Assembly (NCBI GenBank): GCA_965285935.1
Contig: OZ260663.1
Location: 81,220,001-81,284,000, forward strand
Reading direction: 5' to 3'
Length of the DNA stretch: 64,000 nucleotides
Origin: Ophelia neglecta
Lineage: Eukaryota
Positions 2,343 through 62,519 of the stretch are shown piece after piece. The position numbers and the translations under genes were made by a program. A model generated the notes under the pieces. The model was not told the origin of the DNA. It saw only the letters and a list, made by a program, of their open reading frames with translations, and searched no databases. Numbering within the stretch: the stretch's first letter is position 1; each line of letters starts with the position of its first letter.

Positions 2343-5300
2343 CTGTAAGAAAGCAGAAACAAGATAGGGGCTTAGTTCTCAAGTGAATAGATATCATTTG
2401 TTTCAGTCATTGATTTACATTTCTTGGTGTCAAATTGAAGAGCCCTTGAGAACGGTTTAAGGGTTTGCTCTCTCAGAGAATCAACAGTGTTCATGTATTA
2501 TGCATGAGCTACAGCAAAGACACAGGCCTGGCTTGACCTTTTTTTAATGTTTTGTGAGGACAGCATCAACAGTAATACGACGTACATCGTAACAGTCAAC
2601 AGACGGACACTGATTCCACCGTGGTACAGTGTGTGTGAATTGTCCAAGACAAAGCGATAAGAGGCGGCCTTATTGGATTAAACGCCGTGATTGATATGCA
2701 TGCCGGGGTAACTAAGCTCGACTGGGGATAAGCCGAGTTAAATCTGTTAGCTTGGCGCTTGTCTATACCCGCCGATGGCTTGTCACAGCGCAGCGGAAGC
2801 CTGTGATCTTTCTTTTTTCATTTGGCTGGCAAGTGAAGGGCTGGGAACGTCAGCTACTTTGAAGGAGTATGGCCGCCTCCACTGTTTGTCTCAGTCGCCC
2901 CTTAAAGCCCATTGAATATCGCAGCCATTTGCGATATATCTTGATCGTATTACCTGGATGTCATAATGCTGAGCGCTAACCGTATTTTTATTCAGTTTCC
3001 CATAGTAATACATCGCGGTGCTCATGTCAATCCGTTTCGGATTGCGCGCAGATCAATGAATGATACCCATGTTCAATAGATCGCTACATCAAGATGATTT
3101 AATCACATCTAATTGAGTTCGGTTATAACTGTTTTCTCTTCGCATGAATGTCAATGTATAGAGTTATGTAAAGAGTTCATAATGGCGATCGATAAAGCAA
3201 TCGGGCTCGCTTATTACCGGGTTCATGGGAAGCAAGTTCCCATAACGGACTCTCATACAATCTCTTCCTCAAAGCCTCGATTCTCTACAATGATATTCAT
3301 CGTTTAAAGCTCTTCAAATCGAGTAATTAGTTTGGTTGGGACAAAGCTTGTCACGGGCTTGGCTGTCGCATAATTGATTCAAGTGTCGGTCGGCCGCTTG
3401 TCAAGCCGTAAAACTTTCAATTTTGACTTTTCCCAATGATTTCATTGATCGATCGGCCTTTCAGAAGACGAAGAAACATCGCTAACATTTGTCAGGCGGG
3501 AAAATTTGCATTGAACATTTTCATTCTATCAAGGCTAGCCATTGGTTTTGCATTCTGAGTTAATTACAGGTCGATGGCTTACGAAAATAGTTTGGCTTTG
3601 AAAATTGGGAATGCTTTGTCGGGGATATTTGTCGCCATAAAAGTTAGTTGTGCACAATCACGCCGAAATGCACCGTGAAAATCTGCGTTAATGGATTCAC
3701 AAAATGCCATCGAGCTCTTTTTGTGCTGAATAATGTTATGGTTGTGCCGGGCATTGTCAAATTTGTTTATATTTTCTGAAATGCGGTAAAATGCAAATCG
3801 TGTTTCGTGAAGTGTTCATTGAAACGAGATGACATTTTATCAAAAGATTCAATAGTCACACACGCAAATAACAATGATGAACTCGTTTTTTACCAGAAGT
3901 GACATAATTCAGAAAGCGGACCGTGAGATGTTATCTCGCTGGTTATTAAAATCCAATTGATAAACTCCAACATTAAAGAACTCTAATATTTGTCCATCAC
4001 TTATATCTGTAAGTAGTTAGCAGTGATCTTCTGCGCGTTTCATGGCCTAGGCCTATATTTCTATTTCCTATGAGCTCTCGTTGCAAACATGGTATTTTAT
4101 GGGACTATGAATGTTATGATATATGAAAAATATCACTACCTGCAGAAAACAGTCTGAAATCAATAGCCTCGTGATCGTCGTCTGTCACACATATGTCCTC
4201 CTCCTGGTCCTGGTCGTCTTCTACGCCATTTTGAGATCCTCCAGACTTCCGGTGCGATGGACCGTCTTCGTCGCTGGACAGACAGCCCTCGTCATCGTCA
4301 TCGTCTGTGCCGCGTGTGGTCCACGTGACCTTATTGTCCTTCTTGAGGCGCCGCCTAGCGTTGGCGAACCACGTGCTCACTTGTGTTAAAGTCATCTTGG
4401 TTATGATCGCCAACATGATTTTCTCTCCCTTTGTGGGGTATGGGTTCTTTTTGTGTTCGTTTAACCAAGCTTTTAAGGTGTTCGTTCCTTCTCTGGTTGC
4501 ATTCTTTCTTCTCGCATTAGGATCCAACGCGAACCTAAAAAGTAGTAGTGTGAATTTTATGAAACCAATCAAAACAAAAAGAAAAGTGTCAAAATGTTTT
4601 TTTTTTTTAATAAAATTAACCCTATAATTAGGGAGATGGTCAATGGCCTCGTGATAAGAACCTCGTGATTATGTCTGTCAGCCAAAACTGTTTACATCCA
4701 AAAGGAAACTAATGCATCACTATTATTAAGTCTAATGAATTCGCTACCATTTACCACTTGGGAATTATCACGTTTAGTCGGAACAAATTACCATTCAATC
4801 ACTCTCAATTTACAGGCACACTCATATACTGTTTGTCGACATAACATCGTTTTTGTTTCAACTTAACACTTTCCTCTGAGAAAATACAGATATCAACAGC
4901 ACTTGTGGGAAAAAGTTCTGGGAATACTCACGCATTAGCATAAGGGTGAGCCATGATACCCTGCTCGTATGGGAAGTAGGGGGACTGGCGGAGCGCGGCC
5001 CAGAACTCGACGTTATCCTTGGGGTCAAAAGCACCACCCTGTAACAGAGAACGGTCAATCGTGAATATTCATAACCCTGCTTAGAATACTCCATTCTCAA
5101 AGAGAGCGAGGGTGTCAAGCGATGAGAACCAAACCATTATCCAGGGAACTCGTAATGACCAAGTAATGAATTAGTTGTTGAAAGGTCGAGTTTTCGTAAT
5201 CAGACGTGACTGCGGAGTGACTGCGACTAACTGTTTGTTTCGTTCTGGTGATGGGCGCTCTGTTTTGATTTCGCCACATTTTTCTGTTGATGTTCGGGTG

Positions 5301-10191: not shown

Positions 10192-11165
10192 GCTTTCTTG
10201 AGGCGGGTCAATGGAAAACGGCCGGCGGCGCGATAGCTCGACCTTCTTGAGGCGGGTCAATGGAAAACGGCCGGCGGCGCGATAGCTCGGCCTTCTTGAG
10301 TCGGGTCAATGGAAAAACGGCCGGCGGCGCGATAGCTCGACCTTCTTGAGGCGGGTCAATGGAAAAACAGTCGGCGGCGCGATAGCTCGACCTTCTTGAG
10401 GCGGGTCAATGGAAAAACGGCCGGCGGCGCGATAGCTCGGCTTTCTTGTGGCGGGTCAATGGAAAACGGTCGGCGGCGCGATAGCTCGACCTTCTTGAGG
10501 CGGGTCAAAGGAAAAACGGCCGGCGGCGCGATAGCTCAACCTTCTTGAGGCGGGTCAATGGAAAAACGGCCGGCGGCGCGATAGCTCGGCCTTCTTGAGG
10601 CGGGTCAATGGAAAAACGGCCGGCGGCGCGATAGCTCGGCCTTCTTGAGGCGGGTCAATGGAAAACGGCCGGCGGCGCGATAGCTCGACCTTCTTGAGGC
10701 GGGTCAATGGAAAAACGGCCGGCGGCGCGATAACTCGGCCTTCTTGAGGCGGGTCAATGGAAAAACGGCCGGCGGCGCGATAGCTCGGCCTTCTTGAGGC
10801 GGGTCAATGGAAAAACGGCCGGCGGCGCGATAGCTCGGCCTTCTTGAGGCGGGTCAATGGAAAAACGGCCGGCGGCGCGATAGCTCGGCCTTCTTGAGGC
10901 GGGTCAATGGAAAAACGGCCGGCGGCGCGATAGCTCGGCCTTCTTGAGGCGGGTCAATGGAAAAACGGTCGGCGGCGCGATAGCTCGACCTTCTTGAGGC
11001 GGGTCAATGGAAAAACGGCCGGCGACGCGATAGCACGGCCTACTTGAGGCGGGTCAAAGGAAAAACGGCCGGCGACGCGATAGCACGGCCTTCTTGAGGT
11101 GGGTCAAAGGAAAGCCTCAGCGATAGCTGGGCCTTCTTCTGGAGGGTCAAAGGAAAGCCGCGGCG
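10192..11165. repeat. GC/CpG-rich minisatellite, 49-50 bp unit, about 19-20 copies
   Basis: Unit CCTTCTTGAGGCGGGTCAATGGAAAAACGGCCGGCGGCGCGATAGCTCGG, near-identical centrally and degenerate at the right end. Confidence 0.97.
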
Positions 11166-14952: not shown

Positions 14953-15079
14953 ATGGACGACGATCCGCTATTCAATCTGGACACTGTCAGGGATTTTATC
15001 ATCTCTCGTGGTGGGAAAATCAGCAACCATCACCTAGTCACTCATTTCAAAACCTTCCTCAATGACCCAAGGAAGAAAG
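14953..15079 (+). CDS. sowah: sowah exon 1 (MDDDPLFNLDTVRDFIISRGGKISNHHLVTHFKTFLNDPRKK)
   Basis: aaacATGG start, donor G|gtgggt phase 1, SOWAH N-terminal domain motif. Confidence 0.9.
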
Positions 15080-24000: not shown

Positions 24001-27000
24001 TTTATTTGCCCTTGATGTTTTCTCTTTTTGATTGATTCTGTCTCCCTTAAACTGCTATAAGGTCATAAGTATGATGGGAATAGGAGGAAGGAAAGTGTAT
24101 TTTGAATTCATCAACACTTCATGTACATCTATGTTTATTACATAAATTTGGAGACCAGTAAAAGTAATATTGTATTGTACATTTCTTGTTCATAAAATAT
24201 CAACATGAAAAAGTTATGATCATTGTTTGTACATAAAAAATACCACTGTAAAAAAGTACATAAAAATGATATACATTAGTGTTTAGTGTGAGCTTCGAGT
24301 TCTTCTGACTAACCCATTAACTAACCCATTAACTTCCTTTACAATTTACAAGCTTATTGTCTCGTAACCCATTGTTTATTGTTGTTTATTATTTAAAGGT
24401 ATGTTTTTTTATTTTTTCTACATTTTTTCAGCCATCACCCAGTAAAGACGACGATGACAATCATTCTCAATCCAGCGTGGCTATCACTGTAAGTGAATAC
24501 TACTAGGCAGCCGCATGTAGCGAAGAAATAAATTGAATATATATTAGTGGCTGGAATTTGAGATAAGGATATGCCGATCTACTTGTGCAATTATATTTTA
24601 TTCATAACTAGCTACATTGCTGAATAGTCTGTTTATATGAAATGTTCATTGCAGAAATCAATTTATCTTTTTTTTCTAGTATTTATTCTCAAAGTGTCAC
24701 TGCCTTTTATATATTAATATTTCGTTTAACTTTCTTCCAGCTGGATGAGACAGAACGTCAATGGATGCTGATCTCGGCTGCAGCTGACTACCAACCAATG
24801 GCTAAACTCCTGCTAACTCACCCGCACCTCATCAAAAGAAAGGTGTGATAATATGTTATAAAAAGCTATATATCGTAGACTCTCCACCACCTGCTCTATT
24901 CTGCACACATGTAGTATTCATTTAGTGACAAATTCACATTCCAAATCACCATTTTCGGGTATATATGTTTGCTAGCAAGTCTTTAAAATGCTCATTATCC
25001 TTATGAAACTCACCAGTTGCGTTGATGGTGTTGCCAGATCTTTGAAAGAAATAAAATTGCAATTCTGACCACTTTGAATGACATCAACAAGCTTTAGAGG
25101 GATATGTGGTCAACCTTCCATTGACATTGTCAGGTACAAATTGAATCTTTTTCACGGGGTGATAAGTGATTTCGACTAACGTTTAAGTCTTCTCACCTGC
25201 TGTCATTGTAGTACACCACAAATATGTGTGTAGCGGAAAATGTGGTCCCCATTATTAGATTTGGTAGCTATGGCCGTGTCGCTAGGTGTGGAGGATCTTT
25301 GTTTGGGGGGGGGACCCTTGGTGGTGTAAAATTAGTATATTTATGTCAGAGATTAGCTTACAATTGCCATAGATCATTGCAAGAGGTGTATTTGCATGTT
25401 TAGTACCTATGACATCCCTCGGAAGTCATTTTAGGTGGCTATAAACCAGATATCATTGGACACCTTAAGCTACGCCAGTCAATGCACCAACACGATTGGG
25501 GCATAATTCCCCATTGGTCGTCTGCCTTTGCCTGATCTAAGTTTAATTTATTTCCTCTCATAATTCAGCCATTTCAATCTTTCAGCATTATGGCAATTTT
25601 GTTTGACTTTTGAAATGGATACAGCCGTTTGTGTTGTGTTCAATAAGCGTGCTTGCTTTTCGCCAGAAACCTAATATGACTTTTATTCTCTTCGCCCCTT
25701 TCATGTGCCGCTGTACTCTTTGTGCCGATGTGCTGTCACATTCAACAGGATTTCATGTCGGTAAGTCGTACTCACCAAATCAATTGTAGCCATTTCATTT
25801 AGAGGTGTGAACTGATACAAGAGAATGACTCGAAGCCATGATGAGGATTTTGTGATTCACCCAAGTCACTTTGTGTTTGCTCGCTCGGCTAAGCTGCCCT
25901 ATTTATGCACGCACAGGCTACTGTTGGCAACACGAACTTTTAAATCAAAATTTAATTTACTATAGATAGCTTACAGCCTGTGGTCATGACTTCAAGCGGA
26001 TAAGGACATGTATGCCTTTAATAAATTATTTATGCTTTCTATGACTCGGAATTTGAAGTCATTGTAGGAGAGTTTTTCACTGAGGGAAACTATCAGACTA
26101 GCGTAGCCAAAGGCAGAGATTTAGTGTGTGAACTGTGCATGATAGCCAAGCAAAACCAATCATTGATTGATTAGGGACAATTAATAAAGACCGCTAATGA
26201 AGGATATTATTGACAAGGCTTAATTATCATTTGTTAACCAGAGAAGCATTATAGAAAGCACTTCTCCCAGGGACAGGTTAATTTTGTTTCACTTTAAAAG
26301 CTTAATAGAGTGTTTAATTCAGGCAGTAATTTGAGCTGTCAAGAGGCAGGCCTGCTATTTTCAGCTGCATAATAAGAGCTCAATTATGCATTTAACCAAG
26401 CTGCAGGCATTGCAAGCATTCCTCCCAGTTGTCTCATTCACCCTTTAACCAGAACAATGGCTAGGGCTTTTTGTTTGCTTATAATCATTGACCATTCCAA
26501 TGAACAATTTAACTACAAATACACACGCAAAGATATCTGCTTTGATTATGGCCAGTAATGTGATTTGACCATTGTTCTAATTGTTTTCTGTTTTCTTTCC
26601 TTGCCCCTCCTACTGTGCCGTTGTCCTGCCTGGGATTTGATGGCTTCCCTGCCCTACCATCGTCTGACCTGCCTCAATGAAGGGGGTAAGTCATAGCTCT
26701 GCTTAATTACCTCTAAGTGCTTAATTATAACTTATCCCTCAGAAGCATTGCCGGAGATTTGAATCGCTATCAATCATCGGCCGCCATTGTTTTGCCGCTG
26801 TGCCCTGTCAGTGATTTCATATCTGGTGAAAGGGGAGAAAATAATCACATAATTTCATGCTCGGAGCATGTTACCGAGCCGAGCCTGCAGACGGGAAAGT
26901 GGCGGGCTGAAATGTTAGCCAAGACGAGCATTGTCGCCCTGACACAGCTTATGTTTTTGATCAATGTAATTAAGGGGCGATTTTGTTGTGTGCCTTTTAA

Positions 27001-30000
27001 GAAGCACTCTCTTACAGATTGATTTTCAGCTGACGCGTCAATATTGGTGTGCTAATATTCTCTTTAATGGATGTAGAAATCAATGATACTTCCACCTCCC
27101 CACCTCATTTACATGTTCTAGGATTTGTCTGGCATAATTTTGACGGACTATAGGCTAGTGAATGTTGGTCAGTCTTTGTGCCGAGTACGGTATGATAATG
27201 AAAGAAACTGTTTCTATTCTCGATGTCTACTTTAACAAAGTGGGTGGCGTTCGAAAAGCAAAAGTGTCGCCGCGGTGGCCACAGACTTTACAATCGCCCG
27301 GCCGAAATCAATAATGTTTGAAAGCCTAGTTGTAAACATGTGTATTCAAATATGAAATACTGCTAGGAATAATATTCAATTAACTGCCTCACAACGGCAA
27401 TGGAGACTGATTACATTGGGAATCTGTGCTCTCCAAACAATACACGTGTCAGACCACGTCCGGAACACAACAATTTGGAGTCGATCCACCCCGGCCGTTT
27501 GCTTATTGATTGCCGAGTAATATCGCCGATCACTTTTCACGGGGAAAATACAATAATTTAGAGGCTTAGAGTAATATGCGCTCATCAATATGCATACAGT
27601 GTGTGCCTTTTATCATCGCAGATTGCATGCAGTGTCGGGGCGATTTGGACTATAACAGGATTACTCGGTAGATTTGGCCCGATATATTGTGCTAACACTT
27701 TGTGCTCTAGAAGCCGATGCCTGTCAGACTTGGTCAGAATACTACCTAGAGCTGTTCTGGCCTTGTTAAGCTTGGCTAAACCCCTCCCCAATGATATTTG
27801 AGAAATAAAACGTTGGTGTCAGAGGTGTCACTACCCAAGTGAGTTGACTGGATGAGTGGGGAGTTAAGATCCCCGATCTCCACTGCCACTAAGTCCACAT
27901 TATGATATATTGGGTCGCCCGTTAGGGCATTCTGAGGGTGACAGATCGCGCCCACAGATATGAAGGGGGATCTGGAGATTTGACAATAACCAATAAACCC
28001 TCCATATTGCTCAGCCACTGGAATGACAATCAGCTATCTAATTGATATCCATTCACTGCCCACCTGACCTCCGTCTGACAATACACGACAGACACCAGCT
28101 CAATCTGGGACTGATCAAACACATAACTCACTGACAGACACCAACTCGATCTTACACAAATCAACCAAACACCATCCTCCTTGAAGAAATCAAAATATCA
28201 CGTCTGCTGCTCTTTGTCTCAAAAGCCTATTAAATTCCTTTTGTTTGATTGAATATGTATTTTTGTAGTTATAAGTAGACCAATGGTATTTTAATAATGA
28301 AAAGATATGTTTGACAATAATATTTTGCATGAATATGTAGTTTCTTGATATATAAATGTTAATAGCTACTCTCATTGTGTCTATTACTTATTTCCCACCA
28401 TGTTGCTGCCTCTTGTGCCTGTGCTGTGATGTGCTGCCACCTGGTAACCTAACTGTGCATAACTTCTGTGGCCATTCACTCAACCTACAGTTTGTAAGTA
28501 TCTATCTCATTATTTGTCTAACAGCTAACAGTAGACTGGTAGTTGCAAATGGAAATATGTAATATTCCACACCAATATAATACTATGAGTTGGTATTTGG
28601 TTTTTATTCAGCATAGTAACATCTTATCATTAATAAAAAAAGCTCTTTCATGTCAGTTTTATATGAAGATAAGGTTTGAAAATCTAAACATGTCATATGA
28701 AGTTCTTAATGGTGGTATCGTTGTTGACATGTATATAAATCATGTAGAAGTAAGTATGAAGTGTATCTCCAGATGTTTCACACATCTTCACTGGTGTGTT
28801 GGACTGGAGGACAGGATTTTGACAAGGGTGGGTTTCTTTACATCACAGGAAGGGTATGAGATGGGTACCCCCTCCCTGAGGAGAGTCTGGTAGCCTAAGA
28901 CCCCCTCCTGGGACAGGGCACACATCCCTCTCCCTGGGGAAACCCGAGAGGCGGGAGGAATTTATAGAAAGAAAAAAGGGGCCCCTGACCTTCCTGTGTC
29001 TCTCTAAATTTGTCCTGACCCCCCTGCCCCCTCCTAAATGTGCCAGTATCAATATCCAAACCTTCAAGTGGAGGTTTAACTTGTTGGTGAACTTGTTAGA
29101 TAGCAGATGCCTTGTGTATGTCAGCACTAGCGTTTTATCCAAACGTAGATTGTCATGTTTGTGTCTAGGCATTCTGTCATCGCCATCTCTTAGCCCGCTC
29201 TCTTACACGGAATTACAAAATCTTCTCCGGATTTGATTTCCCAACAAATAGCTGACATTCTGCCCTCCACCGTCTCAAGTCAGCAAAACTGGCAACAATG
29301 GCAAAAGTGTCCGACAACAGCCCGGTGTATTGGCCCATCTTTTATCGCCATTGGAGTAAGGGCACTATCAGCGTGGATGTAGCAGTATATTCCCCCAGGG
29401 AGAGCCTTATCAGTTTTTCGATTTGTATTGTATAAGAAGTGCGGTGATCTTGAGAGAAAGGTGGTGTTTGGGGACATGAAGCAGACTGGATGATGTACAT
29501 GTAAGAAGCTGTTTAATGGCGGGGTAGTGGTGGTTGCTTGTAGTTTTGGGCTGTTGACATTGGTCTTCATGTCTGTCAGCTCCGCCGAGACACACTGTTT
29601 GTGTTTATACAGACAGTGTTTATCTAGTGGGTAATTAGAATAAACCCGCCAAGCCTCCAGTTTGAGATGGAGTTTGAGATGGGAGTCCTCGAGCCTGCCT
29701 CAAGCCTGCCTGGGCCGTGTGGCTGATATTACCCTCTTCCCCTAAGTGTTTTCCAACCCTAGGTGTTGGTTTATTTGGTGAAGACTTTACAGGTTTTCTT
29801 GCCATGTTTACTCGCCCTGTTTTATGGCTCCATCGGCAGTTTAGTTATCAGGCGGTTGGCACTAAAATGGAGAGCCTCCAACCTGCCGATTGCTAGTACC
29901 TGTTGAGTGAAATATGTGAGAAAACCTGAATGTTAATTGTAGAATGTGGCAGAGGAGTAAGATTAAACAAGCCAACCAAGAAAAAAATGAATTAAGATAA

Positions 30001-36000: not shown

Positions 36001-39000
36001 GGGGTGAATGGCACACAGGTGGTGCACTATTTACCTAAGTAATTGAATTCTGCCAGTACTGCCTGTATCAAGCTAAAGTCATAAGCTGTGACAGTTGTTA
36101 TGGATGAAGGGTTAGAAGATTGACCTTTGACCCAGGGGTCATGCCCCTGTTTCTGTTTGCCTGTCAAGATCAGCTGGTGGCAATTGTAGCCCTTGTGTGC
36201 CCACCCTCAAATGGCAAATTCATGGTGAACTTTAATCTGCAAACTTGATTGTGTCTGTGACATTCCACAACAATCACCATGATGTAGGGCAGCACGTATT
36301 GTCTTGTTCTCTGTTCAGTACCCTTTGGTACCTGAATGGGTGGGGACCAAGTCAGAGCCCTGATGCCAACAGGGGTCAGAGGTGACAGTTTTGAAAGTGG
36401 TTCACCAGAGTGTCGGCCTGTCGGCCGGGTAATCTGTTCAGATTTACTGGCCAACTGCTCAGATTCTCAGCAACCGCCAGCTTTCAATGTCGTAATTATC
36501 ACACAATTGACCTTTAAAGTTTTAGAAAGAGGCAAATTTGTCAACAGGGTAATCAGAAGGAATGAATTGTCTGAGAAGGTGACTGCAGCTGCCATGCAGT
36601 CCCTACCTTCCATTAGTCTTTTGCTGGCTTCTAGCTGACGACATTTGTCAACCGGTGTAACGGAAATTTGGCGGGAACGCAAAAGCTGTTCAATGATCAA
36701 GGTGTCTCTAAGGCTAATATGTTAAAGTGACATAAATAACTCCAAGCAACTCTAGTTGAAAGCGTTTAGGGCAATATTTCAACAAGCAGCGGGCAAGGAA
36801 AACAGTTGTGGGTTGAGCGCTTTGCACCAGTTTCACCTGTCCTTCCTGTGTGGGTTAGTCTTGGCAGACAATGTGTCAATGAGCCCGACTTGCTGACCAA
36901 GGCCCTACAATCTATAGTGCAGTTCCTCTGCTGAAGGGAAACACTTTCATTTGTCCTTTACAATTGATTTATACCTTGGCGGTTCTCGCCTCTTTGTTTT
37001 AGTTTTCTGAAGAATGTTCATCTTGGCCGATCTCATTAGCACTTAGATGGGTGACTTTGTGCTTGACACTTTTGTTCATCACCCTCAGCAGATTATCTAT
37101 GGTCGGCAGACCTTTTGATCTCCATGATATATTCGCCATAAACAGCCAAGCTCTTGGATTCTATTCAACTTCTCTTTAACCAGTCGCCAGTGTTTTAAGT
37201 TGGTGATTTCAAATTTGCATGTTGTGGAATGAGATTTGAGGATGAGATTGCCTTCTTTCTCATCAAATTAGCATCGGGTCTGTATCGTCCCTCAGTAGAT
37301 GGCGGACAGCCCAAAAGAATCTAATTAACTCAATAATTGATCTGAAAGTGGTTAATTGGTTTAGAGTTGATTTGCCTGTTAGATACTGTGTATCTGTGGG
37401 TGGTAGTAGTGGTGTGTTGGTGGCCGGTGCCGACTAGGACACTACTTTTTTCAACCTGTGGTCATTATCCTGCCTACACCTTCACATTACTTCAGTCCAC
37501 CCTCGTGCCGTCGGAGGAGGGGGGGTGGGGGGTGGGGGGTAGGTGGGTTATACAGGTCCCCCCCTGCCTGGGATCACAGAGAGAGGGGGGGGGGGAGGGT
37601 TGATCAGGGTCCTTGGCCCTGGTATCACCCTGTCTACCAGGCAGTCATAATGATCCTGGGGGGAGTGGGGGGGGGGGGGTGTGATCTGACATCAGCCCCC
37701 TCTATCAGGTAGTCTGGTGATTGACTGGTGTAGGAAGGGGCAGGGGTGTTTAGGTTCTCCCCTCCCCCTAGGAACATGGGGAGGTGGGGTGATCAGGATC
37801 CCCGGCCCTGACATAAGCCCCCTCTACCAGGTAGTTTGGTGGTTTACCGATGTAGAAAGGTGGGGGGGGGTACAAGGTTCCCCCTCCTAATAGCCAATGA
37901 CCAACTACATCAGCCCCCTCCACCAGGTAGAGTGGTGGTCTACCGGTGTGACTGGTGTTACCGAGGGCCTCCAAGCAGGACTGATTGTCATCACCCAGCC
38001 TTACAATCAGCCCCCTCCACCAGGTAGAGTGGTGGTCTACCAGTGTGACTGGTGTTACCGAGGGCCTCTGAGCAGGACTGATTGTCATCACCCAGCCTTA
38101 CAATCCATTAACAGATTTGACACATGGTGAGTCCTCAGTGCCCAGCTTGGCAGGGCAAGTTTGCAAAGTTTCAGTTGTATATCAACACCACCATCAATCA
38201 TTCTGCTACCTCCACCTCCCAGATCAGCCGCGGGCACCAGCCCGATCTGAACGGGCAGCCAGCTCAATCTGGACAGGCCTCATTAATTGATCCTAATCAT
38301 TGGCCAGGGTTCATCCATGGTCAATTTCAGATAGTTGTGCCTGCCTGGATGTTGACACCCTGCCCCGACCCAATTTATTAGCCCTGTCAGATTACAGAAC
38401 ACCAAATGTATGTGATGGTAACAGAATGATAAATAGTTTTTCTACACTTGTCTTTGAAAACATTATGGAACCAGACCAAATACTAGTTTTTAATGTATAA
38501 ATTGCAGATAAATTGTGATTTTTGCCATACTGTTGAAATAGAACTGTGTTAACATGATCATCTGTCGGTGTCGGTCGACGAGTACAGTCGACAGACTCCG
38601 GTTGTAGGAGTATAGCTTACTTAGGGTCTCCAAACCCCGCCGATATATGACATTCTTAGAACATTCAAAACGCCCAACCTGATTATTAAGGGAATATGAT
38701 AGGCCAGGTATTTCAAGTATCTCTGAGCTAGAAGCCCTGGTGGCTCAGTGTCATTCTTTGTTACTGGTAGTTTGGTGGGTGTATGTGGAGAAATCGTCAA
38801 GGATTTACTGTATGACATGTCTCTGGACAGCTCAGAGATCTGGTCGGTCACTAGGAAAAATAAACACTGTGTCAATACAAGGTGTGTGACATTCTGGAGA
38901 ATGTACAATATACATTGTATATACAGAGAAACCTGCCATAAAGACCACCTCTATATAAGGACCACCTGCCAATTCAGAGCACTAATGTAAATACCTTAAT

Positions 39001-42000: not shown

Positions 42001-45000
42001 TATAAGATACACAAGAATCTTCAGCCAGGCTATCTTTCATTACATTGCACTGGCTACCTGCCACTAGAAATATTGATTAAATGAGTGTACTAATTAATTA
42101 TATAATCATTAATGATGTGTATTTACATATTATTCATTTGTAATTTATGTGTATATTTTGTTTCTGGCAGTCAGCTAGAGCACGGCACAAGGCCTGACAT
42201 GGCCACTACTTGTAGCACATCTCACCAGATTTTGTTTTTGTGCCGTTTACTCTTACCCAAAGAAAAATATATCTCTCTCAGATACTGTAACCTTGAGAAA
42301 ACAAAAGTGTGACTTTGTCTATTTTGATTGGCCTACATCAAAGCCACGATCAAGAGGCGTACTTGATGATCTGATATCAGTGTTTAAAGATGCTCAATAC
42401 TCGGGAGATAGGAAACGGGTGGCGCTAAATTCTGATCCAGTTTACGTCTGGAAGAGCTTGGCATTCTTCATTATTGGTTGGATTTTCTCACATTCTGGGT
42501 CAGAGGTGAGGCTAGCGAGCTGAAGGAATTACCTGATTACAACCAGTCATGTGACTCATTATAACACCGACCCCCTCGCCGCTCCATCATTGTCCCTTCT
42601 TCTTGTTCAGCCAGTCTGTTCTCAGGGTTTTTAAGCCTCACACGATATTTTTAAGCCAGGTTTACACTGTATCAAATGAAATATATGCCTTGGTGTTTGG
42701 AGCCAGCTTTGTTTATTGTAGCTTCATAGTCCGACCAGGAAATTCAGCTCACCTTACAAGTATAGAGGTACCGACCATAATTTTGTTTTGATAATTCCAT
42801 CCAAGAGTTGTCACTGTAAAAGTAATCTAGTTCTCCGTCTGCTGTTTTTGCTGTGTGTAGCTCTCACTGTTGCCTTGTGGATGAAATGGACCCGGGCAAT
42901 TATCAAAGATACTCGTCTATTCTCTGCTCTGATTGTGATTGTTACAAGACATACACAGCTCGGGTTACTCTCCACTTGGTTTTGTGATCTTAGAACATAG
43001 TAACTTTAGCCAAGTTTCATCTCGGCTTGCTCGTTTTTGCCCTTGAGACATTTCTACCAACCACTTGGTATTTCTGACCTGCATAACTTCAACATCCGGA
43101 TAAATACTCGGAGAAATCAAACATTGGATTTTGTGCAAAACAATTCTTATCATTCCCCACTGACTGTATTTCTTTAGGTATAATTTGATGCAGGCAGGAG
43201 GAGCATGCTTTGTTTTGCTTCAGTGCTCATGCTTTCATCATGTTTACAAACAAGCTCGCAGAGAATTCTTTGTTCTGGGATGCTGTCAAAAACTGATCCT
43301 ACAAATTGCTAACTTGTTTTTCACACATGAATGTCTTTAGCCTGGAAAGAGGACACAAGTACAGCAGAGGTTGAGTTAGGATAACAGGAAAGTGTATCAC
43401 TGGAAATAGTCTCCACTCCCCTAGTTCAAAGAGGAGGTAGAAAAGTGAGCCAGCAGGAGTGATGATTTTCCTGGTCGGGGATCCTGCGATCAGAAACCTT
43501 ACCTGACATTTGAGTAAATTGTTGATTGTACTAAGACTGGGTTTATTTATTTTTCTGTGGCAAACTTCAGCATTTTGTGGCTGCTATTGGTATTAGACAA
43601 AAGTGCTCCCAGCTGGGTGCAATGCTTCAGTTTTCTCTAAATTTCAAGGCACCCCTATATTTTTATCGTAAATCTTTAAAGAAGTGGTAAGAAAGTAACA
43701 TGAACCATTATCAGCTGTACAAAAAACACCAAACAGTATTGTAATTCTACCCATTGCAGTTTTATTTCTAATAAAAATCATTTAATACTTATTCATAATA
43801 TGCTGCAAATAAAAACATCTTTGTTCTTCAAATCCTTTGATGATATGAACTTGAAAGCTACTCTTCTGCCAGTAAGATATTTAACATAGATCATGACTGT
43901 TGACATTGGGTTGTTAACTTGGCTCATATCAAATGTTCACCGGTTTGTTCTTAGTAAGATCAAACCTGATAGGTGGATATTAACTAAATCAACTGGTATA
44001 TTAACAATGAAGCTGCTCTGTTGCACAACAGGATAAAACCTGGTTACCCATGTCATATTTACTCAGAGTTTTCATGATGATGGTGTGAGAAGTTGTGTGC
44101 GAGGGGGGAATGCCCAGACAAAACAGGGAAGGCAAATCGTCTACAATTGTGGCTGAAATGATTAATGACCCATTGGCTGAGCTTTGACAGCGGATGGCTT
44201 CTGGTCCCCAAAGTTGTCAGCAGGCGATTCCTAGAGAAAGCAGTGATCTTTTGGGTACGATTCCTGCTGCATACTAATCAGCCCTAGGTGGGCCCGCCGA
44301 GGATCAGGCTCTTTGGGCGGCTCGGGCTGCCCTACATGCTGTCGGGCCGGAGCTGATGCAGTTTTAGGTTGTCGACTTTGGTGTCTGCGAGTGTAAGCCC
44401 TCTCTGAGCCGGGCCAGGGCGGAGGTTTACATGGCTTTATAAACCCCAGATTCTTGTCCACCATGTTTGCGTGGTGTGTAGTAGTGCCGTGTACGATGCC
44501 ATGTAGCCTGGTGATCTGGCGGCTGACAGATGATAAGTAATGGGCCTCTAGACGGTGTATGATAGCAGGCAGGTTGGGAGTCTCAATTGGCCGGCCACTT
44601 CTGGCTGGAGCAAGGTCAGACAGCAAGCTGACTGAATATGACAAGAGATATAGACTGGATTGAAACATGTCTGAAAGCCCCCCCCCCCCTCCACTCCACA
44701 ACACCTTTAAACATAATTGAAAAGAAAATGCTCCCCACAACTTTGAAAGGTGATAACTTCCTAACTGGAATTACATGACCTAATTTTAGATTTATGAAGC
44801 TAATTCTAGGTCCGTCATTAAAATGCTTCTTGTCAGTTCTTACTTTTTCCGACTTACTAGTTAGGGATAATGGCAAGGAATACATTGCACTTTCATAGGA
44901 ACTCCCAATAATGTGAGTTTTTTACCTTCCAGTAATGGAAAATCAACCATGGGGAATAAGCTAGACATTTGACTTTGACTTTCATGTTCAGGGTCAAATC

Positions 45001-48000
45001 CTAACCATGTTTCTAGCCATCTCCTGGATTGTATCTGGCAGATGGAGAGGAGAATGTGTGCTATGCATTCTGCATTTAATACCTTTGTCACATTGAATTC
45101 CCTTCATTATATCAAATCTCTTATAACATTTTGTTACTAGTATACTTTTAGAGGCTTGGGTCACATAAAAATTGTTATTTCACTACTTTAACAAGTATGG
45201 GCATATTTTGTGAAATATCTGTAGATATTAATTTATAATGTTAATATGAATTCTTGATGAAAATGAATGAAGTTTTATTAGGTAAATGATGTCTTTTATT
45301 GATGACAGGCCTGTATATATCTTTGACTTTCTTTCCTCCCTTGATGTAGTTCTTGTCCCATCTCTGTTGTAGAACTTTAGTGTTGGAAATTCACACCGGG
45401 TGGTTACAGTCCCGGCAATGTTAGGGAAAAATTCCACCGCTATATCCTGTTGATCTCATTCAACTAATATGATGTTAGCATTGAGCAAGCTGTCAAGCCG
45501 GGGTGTGCCTGTATATCTTAGATGTTAATTTAATTTGCAGAACTTAAAGACTTGCGTAGCCCTTTGACACCTTGATTAACTTCTTAATTCAGCTGGGTCT
45601 CGGTGCCAATCAGCTCGGCTTGTCAGAAAAAAACCTCGGCGGCAGCGACATTGATCAAGATATGAGGAACTCGGCGTGGCGTTGTAAAACACCGCCGCCG
45701 AATTCATTTGGTATTCATGATAGCCGTGCACAATCATCCATTTGAAAAGATGATGACTTAGTATGGCTTAGTTATGATTGACATTCTAATAAAAGGCATG
45801 TTGAAGCTGACTTGTGAAATTGTGGTTAATCCCGGTATTACAAGAGAGGGGTTCTTGGTACCCAGCGCAGGTTTGCCCAAATCCGTCTGGGGTTATTCAT
45901 GTTAATACCCATCTAACTCTTGGAGATGAAATTAATCAAATATTGGTTCTAATATGTCAATGTGTCAAATTGCATTATATAAGCCTGTTTGGGATTTCAT
46001 GTCAGCTGCGTTTTTAGTTGGGCCGGCGGTTTTTTCCTACTGTTTAATTTCTTTGAATTACGGTGGAATGGAGTCTCGGGTTAGTTGTAAAAAGTATCTT
46101 GATTTGAAAGTGACGGGTCTTAATCCAAACTGATCAAATTATTTCCAGCATTGATTATAGTTTAATTATCTGATATGAATGATTTCTTCTATTTCAGTTG
46201 GTCAATGAATCTTCCTCATTGTGCCACCAAGTATTGTTCTGACATTTAATGTAATCTCTCGGGCTGCTCCATTCAGAGTTTCTTCTGAGCCCCGCCTTAC
46301 AAACATCCGTTTTTAGAAGCATTGTGTACTGCTGGCTGCCAGTTAATATACCCCTTTAGTGGGATTAAATGGCGTCGGCTGTGGGGCCATTGAGAGAGAA
46401 AAAAGGCAGACATGTACACACCTATGGCTATGAAAGCAGCACATTTTTTCTCCATTTTTGTTTTGTACCCCTTCTCTGATGTCCCTGTTCAAATGCCTTG
46501 AATTTGAAAGGAATAGTAGAAAAGATAAAATGAAAATAATTTTTGTTTGTTTAAGGTTACAGTTTGGGATATGATAAAGTGATACTGCTGGTTAACATAA
46601 TTATATTTATTTTTTCAGACTGCACTCCACTGGGCAGCTAAGCATGGTAAACTGGAAGTGGTCAAACTGCTGTGTGGAACAACGGGGGCCGGAGTTAACG
46701 TGAGATCGGTGAGTAGTATGGGGACCAATGCCACTCCCTGGTCTGTTTTGTACCTCAGGTTTTATATGAACACAAATGTGCTGAAGTAGAATGATTCTCA
46801 GTGGTGCTGCCCGCTTTAACTGTTGTGATCTGTCAGTTGAATAAACCACACATATGAAATGAGACTGTGTCATTTGAAGCCGACCTCCTCCCCATCTCTG
46901 GCTAAAGAGTGCAAGCCATGAGGAGGGTCAACTTCAAGGGTCACAGAGTCAGATTATGACTCGTGGCCTCCTCAGAGGGCAGTCCCACTGATAAAAGTTC
47001 TAACCTATATTAAATGAAGACTCCAAACACGAGAAAAAGGTGACAGAAAACAGGGGGGCGATTCTTGGGTCTAGTAATTAGTTGTACTACGACTACTACG
47101 TACTATATCCATGGGGTTTTCTGTCCAATACCAAAGTGCAGATTGTTATATAACAATAGCACATTTACTATTGCTTTTGCAACATTTTAGACAAAACTAT
47201 TTTAACTCTTTGTAGAACCAGGTGTATTGAAGTTCTGTTGTTAAAGAATTGGTTGTAGGTTGGTTGTAAACAGTTTAATAGGTTGTTAATTAATAAGTTA
47301 TGATCTACCTAATAGTTATACAAGTTATTATTGACACAGTTATTATTATTAATGTTTTAGAAGTACTGTTTATATGACTGTTGGCTTGTAATAGGAGGTA
47401 CATCTTATATATGAAAGAATGAAAAATAAACACTGTTCTTCAGATTAGAAATTAACAATTAAATACTAGATGTATGGATATCATAATTATACATGTGCAT
47501 AATGGTATTCTATATTTTGTAAATATATTGAAATCTCAAGAATGGTTTATTCTCAAACTATATCCAGTAAAAAGGAAATACTAGAGTAAGTTATCAATGA
47601 GGAACCCTAATTATGTGTCTCTAGTCTTGTCCAGCTGACGGTGGATTAATCATAATCATATCAAATGTCCCAGAATTCATTACAAGCTCCAACACTTTTA
47701 AACAAAACAATTTGGTCAGGATAATAGTTGACCCATATTGGTAATTTTGTTGTGCATATCAATGCACAATAAATTATTCCTTGATTAAGATGCATATGGG
47801 CTGTTGTCAGTTTATGGGGCTGAATCACACAGGGATGAACACCAGTTTATCACAATAATTATCTTAAGGAGTTTGCAATCATGTAAGTGGACACATAGGA
47901 CAAATAAATCTAAAATGGACGCCCCGGACAGTTGACGGTGGAGATGAGCGTGGCGTTGCCTCCCACCATTGATCAAATCCATAAACATGTTCAGTCTGGG

Positions 48001-51000: not shown

Positions 51001-54000
51001 TCCACTTTTTATTTGCCCGGTTTGGCCATTTTCACGGAGGCAGCCTGGGTATTGAGACTCTAATAGGATATTCAACACACACTTGCCTGGCTCAGCGGGA
51101 CGAAATACAATGCTGAACGGTCAAGTTGATTATTCTACTTGATTTCACACAAATGAAAATATTTTGAGAGGCATTATTTGGCAGCAGTGGGTGAGAGGGC
51201 AGTTGGGTATTATCCTGGCCTACAATGGCTAAGGGTTTAATTGGAATCGTTTGGTGGAGTGGGGGACCCTGCTGGGAACCTGCCTCTCCTAATCATGCCA
51301 CCATCAGAATTAGCCAAACACTGTGTTGGTGCTCACTGGGCGGTGAACTGTTTGCAGATTTCTGAACCCTGGCTTGTTAGATTGCTTATTTAAGTAAATT
51401 GACTGTTGTAAACAATAGTGTATCCAGTAGAATCCACAACTTATGTCTGTCAGTGTAGCTACATGTATGTAAACATAGCAGAAATACTATTCAAGTCAAG
51501 GTCTAGACTGTTTCAATACCCTGTGTTTAGTTCTATTAAATTCTAATAAATATATATAATGATTTTTTTTTTTTTTCATGTTCTGCTGATATGTCTGGTT
51601 GTGCCTGACAGCATGTGAGTATTTAACCAGTAAACAGTTCATAAAGGTTTGCGAGCCAAGTGGAAATAGAGGAAAGGGGATGACTGCTTGGAGTTATACT
51701 GTTTAATACACATGTATAATATGTGCCTTGTTGATAAAGAATTTAATACTTTTATAATTACATAAATACTTATCATTTATATCTCTAATCTGACACTATA
51801 TATTATTTTTGATAGATATTATTTTCATATCAAAGTCAATAAAATATGTGTTTTTTTCCACTTATTCGGCAAGTGGCACTTATTTGACCGAAGTTACACC
51901 ATCAAAGACTATAACCTGCAGATGTAATTTAGCCAATCCATTTCATGCTATTGATTTTATATTACGCCATTTTGCACCAGTGCCGCTAGACGGGTAAACT
52001 CAATTGAACTACTATCTCAAAATCATGGTTTCATCCAAAAACCACTATTGTGAATCGAATCTCCTGATCTTTTTCTGAGAGCTTCAATTCAGCATTTTTC
52101 CGTTATGAGAATCATGAGGTCAGTGAGAAGAGAAGATATTGACATTTCTCGCCGTTGATTTCCAGGCAAATCTGCGAGTTTCTGTCCTAAATCCTATCAG
52201 TTCCAGTTGTCTGGCTTTCAAGTCTCCTGGAAGCATTCATCAGTGTTTTGTATTTGTAAATCAGGTTGGAAACCGGTGTCTTTCTCATAAAACCTCATCT
52301 CCTTCATGCTCAACAGAGATTGGGCACCGGGGCAGAATGTGCGATAGTCGCAACTAAAAATTACATGAAACTGCAATTATTACTGGTTGTAAACATTCCA
52401 CTCATAGAATGTGCTGTCTTGTATCTTTTTCATATTGTCGCCCATTGTGCTGGTTGCTGAAATGGATGGTTGCCTTAGGGGGTAAGTGAAATTTCATCTA
52501 TAGCTCCGTTGTCACGTTCCTAATGATATTATTGGCCGATAGAAATGACAGATCATCACAGCCAATTATTACAGATTTCTCATGCATATGAAACGGTGAT
52601 ACCCCGGGCCCCGGCCACATCGACCAGCCATCACCGAGGGATAAAAAAAGATATTGAATGTCACTCACTGTCGGGGGAGGTTGGGGCCAGCGATAATGTA
52701 AAGGGCTTGGTCACAGGGCACTCTACATTCACCCATTCTGGCAGCCATTGTCTGCCCTTGGGCATCTGGGGCGGAGACTGGGCTCGGGTCGTGGACTCCA
52801 CGGCCTCCGAGGAAGCCCAGGAAATGAAGGCTCTGTGCCCAACACCTTCGCTCGAGTCGCGGGCAAAATTCGTTTCCTGTAGAACATGTGTAGGGAACGG
52901 AGCAATTTGCATCTCAACAAATGAAACTCGGACTCATCAGCAATAATCATGATTTAATGAGAGCTCTGCTGGCAAGTCCAAGATGAATGGGACATTACTG
53001 CTCTGGAGGAGGTGTGAAAATCTTGCCATTTCACTGCAGAATATTTCCATTAATTACCCAACTGTTCTGGTAGGGGGAGCCATACATGTCTTAACAAGGC
53101 TGCGTAAATCAAGGTGAGAAGCGGAGTGTGAGTCACCTAGACCCAGGCCCCTTCACTTCCACCGGCATTCTCTCCCCGGTTTGATTCATAATGCCATTCC
53201 TCCACAAGAGCTCTCCAGACCTCAAGCCCCCCACCTTTGATGCCGGATTGGTTATTAATTAAAATTAAAATCTCCAATGCTTTGATGAAAAGCCTCTGCC
53301 GCTAATGGGATTGAAAACAGTCGATAAATAGATGTTGATTGTTTTGGAGATATTGGTGTGGGTGGCCAGTGTGATGTTAATGGCCCCGTTTAACATAGTA
53401 GTAGACTTGGATGGTAATCACGATGATCTCTGGATAAACAGAACCAGGGTGGTCCGTCTGCAATTCAATAAGCTCTAATACACTTGATCAAATCTCATTT
53501 CATTTATTATTTATTAATTATAACCGCACAGAAGCTGTTGTACCGTAATGCTTCTAATAATGAACAGAAGCTGTTGTACCGTAATGCATCTAATGATTGC
53601 ACCATGTATAAATTCATACACTTTAGATTCATATCATTTTAATTATTGTTTTACCTATATTAATTTAACCCATCTAGTTATCCAAGTAACAAACATTTCT
53701 AATCGACCAGTAATAATTAATTGTTATTAACCTTAGTAGGTAGGTAATAATTAGTGCTATGACTGAGCACTGTCTGGGTGAAGGCAGGATACCCCATTAC
53801 AGTCAAGTCTATTTTTATTTGAAGATAAAACATGTTATTATAGTATAGTGAAGAGATTAATATAAAAGAATAACTCAAGACATTGGGAACAGAAATCACC
53901 AATTTCCAATATTTGTCTGCTAATAGGATTTGATAGAATAAAGAGTAATGTTCAGTTGCCTGCAATTTAGTTGCTTGCCATGATTTCTAGCTGAAACTTT

Positions 54001-60000: not shown

Positions 60001-62519
60001 AGTTTAGAAATGATTCATTACTATTCAAAGCTTATTATGTTTTCTCCCAGATACAAATTGGTTTAAAGAATAAGTTGCTATGAGGTAACCAGGCCAGTTT
60101 CTTTCATCCGTAGGTGATATATTTGATTGGAGAATGTTAACATTTGTGGTTGCATTTTGTCCATCTGTTCAATGATCATAACCTTAATCAGGTTTGATTG
60201 AAATTCTAATCAGAATAAATGGCATTTTGATAACTGAATCATGCCAGTATTTTCTTTTTTGTTATATCTTCGGTTGTATTTAAATAATTGTTTTACCTTA
60301 ATATGAAATTTTAGCCAGAAAGCTTATAAAAATATTAGTTTTTTATTCCTGTTACTTTGGCAGCAATTGACTTTATTGTGATTGCGAGGTTGTTAAGCTG
60401 GTTTATCCAATAACTTATTGCAAGTTGCAAAAAGTGTCACCAGACAACAATATTATTACTGCGAGCATCTGTCTAGCATTACCAGTCTGACAAGGGTAGT
60501 CTTACTTTTTTCCCTGATTCCAACCACAAACAGTTTGCCTGCAACTATTGGAAAGATGTGGCTATTAGTTTGTCACCGAGAAAGACAAATGTTGTTGGGA
60601 CTCGGTTTAGAAGCTCGGATAGGGTAAACCCTAGGGGCATAGTGTCAAAAAGGCTTCCCCTCGGAGGGCCGCCAAACGGCATTGCAGTGCTGTGTTTTAA
60701 TTGAGTTGGACGGTGGTGGATGGCTACATTGTTTTTCACTTAGGTGTACACGGTTCCTATCAACACATTTGTGCACCGCCTGTTGTTTTTCTGTGAGTGA
60801 GAGCATTACGGTAGGAAATGGCGAAGCATCTGCCCTGAGTTGGCCTGTCAGTCATGGCATGTCAAAACATTAGTTACACACAAAAGCCATTACAGGGGAA
60901 TAGTCCTGCAGATGTATTGCCAGCTCCTTGTCAGCTGCAAAATGGCACAATGCCTCGCCATTGACACTACATAGATTGGCTTAATTGTAAGGAAATGAAG
61001 TGATTTTGTCTGCTGGTGGCTCTGAATTCATATTGCGAGATCTCTTCCTGATGTCTCCACTTTTCCTTCACCTGCAGACAATGGCTAGCAGGGTTCCCAA
61101 TAAAACTAGCTTGTATTGGAATTCTCTCCCATTCTCTGCTGCATCATGGGAAGTTTGTGAGAAAAGAAGTAATCTGTGATCAAATAAACTAGCTTAGACA
61201 TAAAAATAGAGCAGTTTCCATGGCAATCAGAAGTCAAAGCCTTGTTTTCCCTCCCAATTTTTTTCAGAATCAAAATGGGGGTGTTATGTAACCAGTTTCT
61301 AGGCAGGCTTAGACCAAGCCTTCTGCCACTTGTGTTTACACGTCTGCTCTGCCCCCATATGTCATTCCTGTGGAACCCTTGATAAAAGACCACTAAAAAA
61401 TGATCAAAATTGTGAAATAGGGTTTGCCATACATGCCATGTGTTTAGACCTCTGCTGAAAAGCCACTGCTCTTATGAGACCATTTATTTGGTGGTCTCTC
61501 TTGAGGGGTCCCACACTGTAGTGATAACTGACAGGGAGCTTGACCTACATGTTCAGGGTCAGATTTGTAATAATTATATATGTACTGAATTCTGCCTTAT
61601 TAATTTAGCAGCTGGAGGCTAGCAGTGTAACAGTAGCGTATAGATATGATTCCCATCTGACCTTACTTTTGACCTTGACCTACATTTTAATGGTTGAATC
61701 TCTAAATGATTACTTCTCTTGTTAATAGAAGCAAGAAATTCTTCATTTATGGGGTTGTTATTGTTGTTGTTTGGGGTTTTACGTTGCTTTCAACACTTAT
61801 CTGGTCATATCGCCATGGTGACTACTAGTGACAGTGGACTCAATGCCCTCTTTAGAGTGCTGCTTCACTAGAGTACCTGCCATAGACACCAGACAGGGAC
61901 CCCACCCAGTCACATTATACTGACACCGGGTTGATCAGTCTTCAGTCATTGGGAGCATATAGGAATCCATGTGCTGTGCATATTGTGGTGGTCTCAGAGT
62001 TGATCAGGACCTATCTTTAGTTTAGTGACCTTAGGTCTGACCTTGTTGGTAAAAATTCATTGGGTAAGGCACTGGTGACCTTAGGTCTGACCTTGTTGCC
62101 TAGAAAAACATTGGGTAGGGCAGTGTTGACCTTTGATCTGACCTTGTTTGACAGTGTTTACTATCACCTTCTACATGTTTGACCTTTTTTTCCAGAGTCA
62201 ATCAATGGGGTCCTTTCTCTTTTTCATTGTGGGGACAGGCACATTCATTTTTCTTCTTAGAATTGAATGAATTGAATCTACTCTAATCTAGGTTTTTTTT
62301 ATTGTAAAAACACAATTCCCCCTTTTGGGCATTGTCCTAATACGTAAAAAAAAACTTGTAAACCAAAGTTTTGTTCTAATGTCATTGATTTGTTAACAAA
62401 TTGACCTTTTTTCTGTTGCTAGTAATATTTTCCTGTCCTGTTTCAGGGTTATACACCACTACACTTGGCAGCAATGCAAGGTCATGAGGATGTGATTGAG
62501 ATCCTGGTCAATGCCTACA
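14953..62519 (+). CDS. sowah: Sowah (sosondowah) ankyrin-repeat protein, 5'-partial gene (13 exons in window including 5 microexons; continues past window end)
   Basis: N-terminal SOWAH motif (VRDFIISRGGKISNHHLVTHFKTFL...RQKFKTYVNTLSTVK...GEKLLVLKKKY), acidic/Pro linker, then LDETERQWM...[19 protein letters not shown]...[21 protein letters not shown] ankyrin repeats. All junctions are GT-AG and in frame. Adjacent to Irx, as is known for Sowah. Confidence 0.93.
15925..16010 (+). mobile_element. degenerate 5' fragment of a tRNA-derived SINE
   Basis: B-box-like gggttagaatccc followed by tcaaaccaaagac...ttcccctgccaggc, resembling marine-invertebrate SINE heads (recalled, not searched). Confidence 0.4.
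17320..17381 (+). CDS. sowah: sowah exon 2 (DTNRQKFKTYVNTLSTVKLDT)
   Basis: poly-T cag|AT acceptor, ACG|gtatgt donor, phase 1-0. Matches the family R..FK..VN....VK motif. Confidence 0.92.
17612..18358 (+). CDS. sowah: sowah exon 3 (SGEKLLVLKKKY plus acidic Pro/Glu-rich linker)
   Basis: cttcattcag|AGT acceptor, CCG|gtgagt donor, 747 nt, within ORF 17624..18448. Confidence 0.92.
20550..20731. mobile_element. MITE, Tc1/mariner-pogo-like, TA-flanked
   Basis: Imperfect TIRs tacagttgtccctgtgatg versus revcomp tagagtggtccctgcgatg, with internal gatgaagggacac-type subrepeats. Confidence 0.7.
20932..21042 (+). CDS. sowah: sowah exon 4 (VPSGAKQVVPVSVKDRAKHLNKITSESDLSASMIGKK)
   Basis: ttttttccag|GTT acceptor, AAG|gtattg donor, 111 nt, phase 0-0. 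Confidence 0.85.
21397..21510. repeat. 35-bp tandem repeat, about 3 copies
   Basis: actgagtctttctcagtgctcattcactaccaaga and variants. Confidence 0.85.
22137..22349 (+). CDS. sowah: candidate alternative (cassette or alternative first) sowah exon, 71 codons
   Basis: actaatcag|GAA...AAG|gtaatc, open and phase 0-0, coding-like composition in an AT-rich intron, but a weak polypyrimidine tract. Confidence 0.5.
24432..24488 (+). CDS. sowah: sowah exon 5 (PSPSKDDDDNHSQSSVAIT)
   Basis: ttttttcag|CCA acceptor, ACT|gtaagt donor, 57 nt, phase 0-0. Confidence 0.87.
24741..24842 (+). CDS. sowah: sowah exon 6 (LDETERQWMLISAAADYQPMAKLLLTHPHLIKRK)
   Basis: tttcttccag|CTG acceptor, AAG|gtgtga donor. Matches the SOWAH pre-ankyrin L...E..W motif. 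Confidence 0.92.
25749..25760 (+). CDS. sowah: sowah 12-nt microexon (DFMS)
   Basis: caacag|GATTTCATGTCG|gtaagt supplies the family motif DFMS. Confidence 0.92.
26683..26685 (+). CDS. sowah: sowah 3-nt microexon GGG (Gly)
   Basis: aatgaag|GGG|gtaagt after about 125 nt of AG-free pyrimidine/TGC-rich sequence. Supplies G of [10 protein letters not shown]. Confidence 0.85.
28491..28493 (+). CDS. sowah: sowah 3-nt microexon TTT (Phe)
   Basis: cctacag|TTT|gtaagt after about 120 nt AG-free with TGTGCY repeats and a CCTAAC branch-like site. Supplies F. Confidence 0.87.
30097..30232. repeat. local duplication, period 74 bp
   Basis: atccatttgttgaatggt(c/a)atagataggaataaactgtat occurs twice. Confidence 0.85.
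37500..38105. repeat. G-rich degenerate tandem array ending in two near-identical 97-bp units
   Basis: atcagccccctccaccaggtagagtggtggtctacc... at 37909 and 38006, related partial units at about 37691 and 37813, interspersed poly-G. Confidence 0.85.
38922..39102. mobile_element. MITE, Tc1/mariner-pogo-like, TA-flanked
   Basis: TIRs TA-CAGAGAAACCTG ... CAGGTTTCACTG-TA, internal repeated (G)ACCACCT. Confidence 0.8.
46619..46708 (+). CDS. sowah: sowah ankyrin exon ([30 protein letters not shown])
   Basis: tttttcag|ACT acceptor, TCG|gtgagt donor, 90 nt, classic ankyrin helices. Confidence 0.95.
51612..51614 (+). CDS. sowah: sowah 3-nt microexon CAT (His)
   Basis: poly-T...tgtgcctgacag|CAT|gtgagt supplies H of [10 protein letters not shown]. 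Confidence 0.87.
52479..52481 (+). CDS. sowah: sowah 3-nt microexon GGG (Gly)
   Basis: ttgccttag|GGG|gtaagt after about 70 nt AG-free with TGC motifs. Supplies the first G of HGGY. Confidence 0.85.
61367..61520. mobile_element. degenerate MITE of a related GACCAC-subrepeat family
   Basis: tgtggaacccttgataaaagaccac ... gtggtctctcttgaggggtcccacactgta imperfect inverted ends. Confidence 0.5.
61760..61940 (-). mobile_element. 5'-truncated SINE with conserved central domain (Meta/RUDI-like)
   Basis: Minus strand reads ccggtgtcagtataatgtgactgggtgg...agtgaagcagcactctaaa...gatatgaccagataagtgttgaaagcaacgtaaaacccc then a (CAA)n tail. Family assignment is from memory. Confidence 0.6.
62025..62150. repeat. 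51-bp tandem repeat, about 2.5 copies, TGACCT-rich
   Basis: gtgaccttaggtctgaccttgttg... repeated. Confidence 0.85.
62447..62519 (+). CDS. sowah: sowah ankyrin exon ([24 protein letters not shown])
   Basis: cctgtttcag|GGT acceptor, A|gtgagt donor phase 1, canonical GxTPLHLAA ankyrin consensus. Confidence 0.95.

Follow-up and report, generated by a model that had tools for sequence, protein, structure and literature searches.

The Sowah gene of Ophelia neglecta contains, between two ankyrin exons, two consecutive exons of a single codon each, CAT (His) and GGG (Gly). Judged from the genomic sequence, both codons would be included in the mRNA, and we consider it very probable that this inclusion is constitutive and driven by core splice signals. 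The initial annotation of the window (the whole 64-kb stretch of DNA that was analysed) had proposed microexons of 3 + 3 nt at 51612 and 52479, lying 864 nt apart within 4.9-kb and 10-kb introns and rebuilding RS-H-G-GY. We find AG-CAT-GTGAGT and AG-GGG-GTAAGT at these positions, the three introns around them measure 4903, 864 and 9965 nt, and the joined exons read RS-H-G-GY. A first chain of short exons lies further upstream, and both clusters fall, as had also been claimed, in loops between ankyrin repeats. The features of the locus are the following.

4117..4668, minus strand: open frame with the homeobox of the adjacent Iroquois-type gene (Pfam Homeobox_KN, E 6e-18)
14953..15079, plus strand: Sowah coding exon 1, for the N-terminal domain (80% identity to P0001)
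24741..24842, plus strand: 34-codon exon that encodes the first ankyrin unit, a degenerate one (matched by eye to Sowah orthologues; no Pfam match alone)
25749..25760, plus strand: 12-nt microexon D-F-M-S, first chain (AG-free zone 80 nt; fly equivalent the 12-nt ME119)
26683..26685, plus strand: 3-nt microexon Gly, first chain (AG-free zone 125 nt; fly equivalent ME3, GGC)
28491..28493, plus strand: 3-nt microexon Phe, first chain (AG-free zone 123 nt; fly equivalent ME2, TAT)
46619..46708, plus strand: upstream ankyrin exon, 30 codons, T-A-L-H...V-R-S, phase 0 at both ends (Pfam Ank PF00023, E 5.5e-08)
51612..51614, plus strand: 3-nt microexon CAT (His), for the first of two turn residues in the inter-repeat ankyrin hairpin (gacag-CAT-gtgagt; AG-free zone 79 nt upstream)
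52479..52481, plus strand: 3-nt microexon GGG (Gly), for the second of these residues (ccttag-GGG-gtaagt; AG-free zone 69 nt)
62447..62519, plus strand: downstream ankyrin exon, begins G-Y-T-P-L-H (Pfam Ank PF00023, E 6.1e-08; acceptor and donor present)

The Sowah locus and its one-codon exons

Two genes stand head to head in the window, an Iroquois-type homeobox gene (minus strand) and Sowah (plus strand). The TALE homeobox lies about 10 kb upstream of Sowah, in physical linkage with it, and by its likeness by eye to published Irx homeodomains this neighbour would be Irx. Irx-Sowah linkage is described for most bilaterians (PMC2674049), and in fly Irx enhancers are reported to lie inside Sowah introns (PMC12311624, citing Maeso et al. 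2012). We assign the gene to Sowah because the N-terminal exon (42 aa) finds 100 relatives at E<=0.001 and because named SOWAH proteins make up 12 of the 21 matches in the search with the ankyrin exon. In a Pfam search neither the 42-aa exon nor P0001 matched PF25877, the SOWAH winged-helix family; for P0001, PF25877 is listed as a precomputed match. The short ankyrin domain patterns D-x-x-x-G-[YF]-T-A-L-H-W-A-A-K and [ST]-x-G-G-Y-T-x-L-H are both present. Against a profile of 74 Sowah domains the joined gene model scores 141.6 bits with H and G and 128.0 without, a gap that is circular, as the profile was made from sequences that include both residues. The next Sowah exon starts beyond the window, near the window-equivalent position 67956 (contig L002).

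Both exons that flank H and G score above the Pfam Ank PF00023 cut-off, and the borders of the upstream one recur in contigs of other animals. All exons are in phase 0 with canonical AG/GT sites, and the reading frame is kept. Three sequencing runs show even intron coverage and zero exon-exon joints, from which we take them to be DNA-type runs of one sample. The contigs of two of them, X1 and X3, span H and G, and no difference is listed at either site; this agreement supports the assembly there. The stretch 51719-52680 carries 11 substitutions and the part between 52373 and 52521 none, where about 1-2 would be expected, too few to test.

Several further elements were seen in the window. Repeated phrases in the six-frame translations at about 10000-11270 and at 37700-38130 indicate local tandem or direct repeats; the former sit between the Irx and Sowah starts, and the GC content of 10001-12000 is 0.545. 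A Glu-rich open frame of 83 codons (22122-22370, plus strand) lies between two Sowah exons and has a possible acceptor near 22136 and a possible donor near 22349; it could be an extra or alternative exon. A very high-copy repeat occupies 61760-61940 in the intron before the GYT exon, with a summed contig depth of more than 100,000 in its bin. Two other short candidates in the 18-kb intron, both on the plus strand, are likely chance matches, and the orthologues leave no room for them: 12 nt with GTGAGT at 38115-38126, and 14 nt with a 96-nt AG-free zone at 43858-43871.

Two turn residues in Sowah proteins

To describe what Sowah proteins carry at this place, 132 proteins were collected; eight of them, generic ankyrin proteins, were removed, as were three that lack the anchor motif. 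This left 121 scored proteins, 74 derived from assemblies and 47 from genome models, and the slot was defined as the residues between [ST] and G-[YFHQ]-T. The sample is biased, as the query carried H-G, the best 120 of 170 matches were used and the named ones are mostly arthropods; clustering at 90% also hides skip isoforms. Among the matches listed, 73 of the 74 assembly-derived proteins have two residues in the slot and the remaining one reads H-G by eye; the slot holds H-G in 43 of these proteins, N-G in 13, S-A in 9 and other residues in the rest. The genome models among the matches listed have two residues in 40 cases out of 47, H only in 3 and none in 4. Across orthologues the first turn residue is H, N, S or F, and the second is G in most. 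Lamprey P0009 and killifish P0240 (isoform X1) read RS-HG-GY, the same as our joined model, Exaiptasia P0238 reads KS-HG-GY, and Nematostella is given as KT-HG-GY (PMC2674049, supplementary file 5).

The Centruroides vittatus RefSeq model P0212, which counts among the 40 two-residue models, reads RS-VS-GY. The V-S is likely a GTGAGT donor that was read through, so that the microexons would be mis-annotated in this model. Sowah gene models often lose these codons, as seen in 7 of the 47 genome models among the matches listed and in this one read-through, and annotation of the Ophelia neglecta genome should include the H and G exons.

In the close orthologue P0203 the segment with both residues aligns ungapped to hairpins of ankyrin-1 and ankyrin-2. 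In an ankyrin hairpin seven residues separate the conserved N from the T of TPLH, a spacing that is found with H and G and is two short without them. H and G are therefore likely the turn of an ordinary ankyrin hairpin and no special insert, and their loss would shorten the hairpin by two residues. The initial annotation had also called for structure models with and without H-G. Those of the killifish isoforms P0240 (with H-G) and P0241 (without) have alike folds, with mean pLDDT of 65.9 and 65.6 and of 95 and 94 in the loop block; H-G lies in a loop between two helices, and the models give no verdict on the need for it.

Layout in other animals and age of the introns

In Drosophila melanogaster, sowah (FBgn0036302, FlyBase) carries microexons of 12 nt (ME119), 3 nt (ME3), 3 nt (ME2) and 6 nt (ME19), of which ME19, AACGGG, codes for N-G (PMC8042270 Table S4). 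Part of the feature is thus already present in the fruit fly annotation, and the surprise is modest. Our literature searches found no paper devoted to Sowah microexons beyond these fly tables, and a search joining Sowah, microexons and ankyrin found none; Maeso et al. 2012, which lies outside the coverage of these searches, may describe them.

From metagenome contigs we retained 80 loci, 26 of which have an intron after the upstream ankyrin exon. Separate 3 + 3 exons occur in L069/L075 and L079 (K and G), in L080 (T and G) and in L084 (R and G, with the following exon off the contig). In L073/L076 only the K exon is seen, as the contig stops after it; L026 shows the H exon alone, and in L033 (2020-2140) H is separate and G is fused to the next exon. 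A fused 6-nt N-G exon is found in L032, L035, L036 and L040, which are closest to the springtail Folsomia. In 12 of the 26 intron-bearing contigs (L008, L010-L013, L015, L017, L019, L025, L027, L028 and L034) there is no convincing downstream microexon within the contig DNA, and their introns probably run past the contig ends. The first chain varies as well: it is fully fused in L080 (9850-10930), in which the second is split into T and G, and in L032 (4607) and L040 (338) a 9-nt exon replaces the 12-nt one.

An intronless Sowah ankyrin region was seen on nine contigs of 7-17 kb (L014, L022, L029, L031, L056, L063, L064, L067 and L071), all with two residues in the slot. These copies are likely retrocopies in several invertebrate lineages. 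Sowah retrocopies have been published for tetrapods.

In a tree, the loci with separate K and G exons fall outside the protostome rows, in an open non-protostome group with weak support (72/93). Their exon scores tie between Exaiptasia and killifish, so that neither the tree nor the scores show them to be cnidarian.

Predicted RefSeq isoforms also differ in these residues. Kryptolebias has HG in X1, H in X2 and none in X3; Sander has HG in X1 and H in X2 and X3; Perca flavescens has H in X1 and none in X2; and Octopus sinensis has FA versus F. The isoforms that lack G or both residues may reflect real low-level skipping or alignment artefacts.

The initial annotation had offered recurrent intron gain at these sites as one explanation and a comparison of intron positions across Sowah orthologues as a check. 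The same positions are found in distant animals, which argues for inheritance with losses and against recurrent gain. From the layouts compared here, an ancestral 3 + 3 split with later losses would be the simplest history, and the fused 6-nt N-G exon, the G fused downstream and the intronless copies would most simply be such losses.

Recognition, rival readings and known systems

Splicing at the matching predicted sites is seen in contigs from elsewhere among animals. L068, which matches the genomic contig L075 at 98.9-100%, carries S-AAG-GGG-GGA joined exactly at the predicted sites, and L081 shows the same joint against L079, stopping 4 nt past it. In L060 (695-850) the G exon is already spliced to the exon after it while the intron before it is still in place, and in L068 (567-904) the same holds for the F exon. 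Both appear to be partly spliced RNA, and these two contigs hint at a downstream-first order of intron removal.

Each of the five microexons of the window is followed by a GTRAGT donor, and the AG-free zones before them span 69-125 nt, compared with 22-44 nt at the three flanking exons; gaps of 60 nt or longer make up 2.3% of the intronic AG gaps. Among 19 microexon sites of other animals, 15 have an AG-free zone of at least 60 nt. TGC occurs 2-3 times in the last 60 nt before the window microexons versus 0.9 in the background; at the 19 sites in other animals it occurs 0-2 times, and the raised count is not conserved. Long AG-free zones together with UGC motifs are described as features of eMIC targets (PMC8797185), and donor strength as the strongest correlate of inclusion (10.1101/2024.09.17.613571). 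Recognition of the one-codon exons could rely on the perfect GTRAGT donor and the long AG-free zone, which would set the branch point far enough upstream. Removal of the intron downstream of a microexon may then precede that of the intron upstream, as suggested by the two contigs. The arrangement could have persisted if skipping shortens the hairpin and the exact loss of an intron is a rare, slow event; the losses that did happen would have fused the codons (the 6-nt N-G exon of insect-like loci) or removed all introns (the intronless copies). Single-codon exons in tandem, preserved in multi-kilobase introns over hundreds of millions of years, would allow a clean test of how the spliceosome recognises its smallest exons when no tissue regulator is involved. 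Conservation of the long AG-free zone in distant animals and the two partly spliced contigs make such recognition testable.

If the sites were chance matches, the mRNA would read S-G-Y without an insert, as do 4 of the 47 genome-derived models (among the matches listed) and arthropod models of 2009, which likewise miss both residues. The residues missing from the 2009 fly model are now annotated in FlyBase, however. On the plus strand of the 64 kb, AG-NNN-GTRAGT occurs exactly four times, and all four are predicted one-codon exons that encode the expected residues in the right order (G, F, H, G); on the minus strand it occurs once. In 300 first-order Markov resamples of the 15.7-kb interval between the ankyrin exons the mean site count is 0.42, at least two sites occur in 6.7%, and H or N followed by G occurs in 0 of 300. 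The interval itself holds 56 AG-NNN-GT sites, eight of them coding for H or G, and among these eight a GTRAGT donor with an AG-free zone of more than 55 nt is found only at 51612 and 52479; no alternative 6-nt H-G exon is present in the interval. We regard a chance origin as scarcely credible. Repeated independent gain of introns at the hairpin codons is almost as hard to accept. The lineages do differ, with 3 + 3 exons, a fused 6-nt exon or H alone with G fused downstream, and L080 combines a fused first chain with a split second one. The exact positions are nevertheless common to Ophelia neglecta and to the octopus and teleost isoform sets, and recur in contigs that a weakly supported tree places outside the protostome group; separate gains that each time hit the same three neighbouring codon borders would be far less parsimonious than losses.

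More weight, although still little, can be given to regulated cassette exons, in which tissue-specific skipping of G or of H and G would shorten the hairpin and tune partner binding, perhaps under eMIC/Srrm234. Phase 0 throughout means that skipping preserves the frame, fish and octopus RefSeq isoforms without G or H and G exist, and the long AG-free zones and TGC motifs fit the eMIC signature. Against such regulation, all four fly sowah microexons stand in the sheet of constitutively spliced microexons (PMC8042270 Table S5), data that for the second hairpin concern a fused 6-nt exon. Both residues are present in 73 of the 74 assembly-derived proteins (among the matches listed) and in all of the nine intronless contigs of 7-17 kb. 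Constitutive inclusion is favoured over regulated tuning, which we consider unlikely, because the TGC count is not conserved (in other animals, 0-2 at each of 19 sites) and because the only sowah row in the fly eMIC table (PMC8797185 Table S2) is a different exon of 46 nt. Selection for hairpin length, the other explanation of the initial annotation, is thus mostly not borne out, given also the ungapped alignment to ankyrin-1 and ankyrin-2; what may survive of it is a minor role of skipping, as suggested by the fish and octopus isoforms. A joint reading, which we rate as rather unlikely, would have the one-codon exons predate both bilaterians and the eMIC neural program, with downstream-first splicing for which a perfect donor and a long AG-free zone suffice; in some lineages, namely fish, octopus and perhaps Ophelia neglecta, skipping of G or of H and G would then have been co-opted to tune the ankyrin hairpin residue by residue.

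Four known systems come closest. The locus resembles the Iroquois-Sowah (CG10632) genomic regulatory block (PMC2674049, PMC5803294, PMC12311624) in that a Sowah gene with huge introns adjoins an Iroquois-type homeobox gene; microexons are absent from the descriptions of the block in the passages of these papers that were covered. With fly sowah our gene shares the family, the first chain of 12 + 3 + 3 nt and a two-residue slot in the second hairpin, whereas the two 3-nt exons of Ophelia neglecta, with introns of 4.9, 0.86 and 10 kb, correspond to a single fused 6-nt N-G exon in fly, preceded by about 3 kb of intron. The isoform sets of teleost SOWAHC-like (XP_017295333.2, XP_024858212.1, XP_024858213.1) and Octopus sinensis SOWAHB (XP_029635954.1, XP_036359359.1) are similar in that the residues act as separate units, as a 3 + 3 split predicts, and differ in being predicted isoforms compared by protein only. 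The neural microexons that depend on eMIC (Srrm234, SRRM3/4) are likewise tiny frame-keeping exons with long AG-free zones; they have UGC near the acceptor, where TGC is raised in the window but not in other animals, and are described as tissue-regulated and, in fly, as having weak donors (PMC8797185). In contrast, the Sowah microexons have perfect donors, stand in tandem and have constitutive equivalents in fly.
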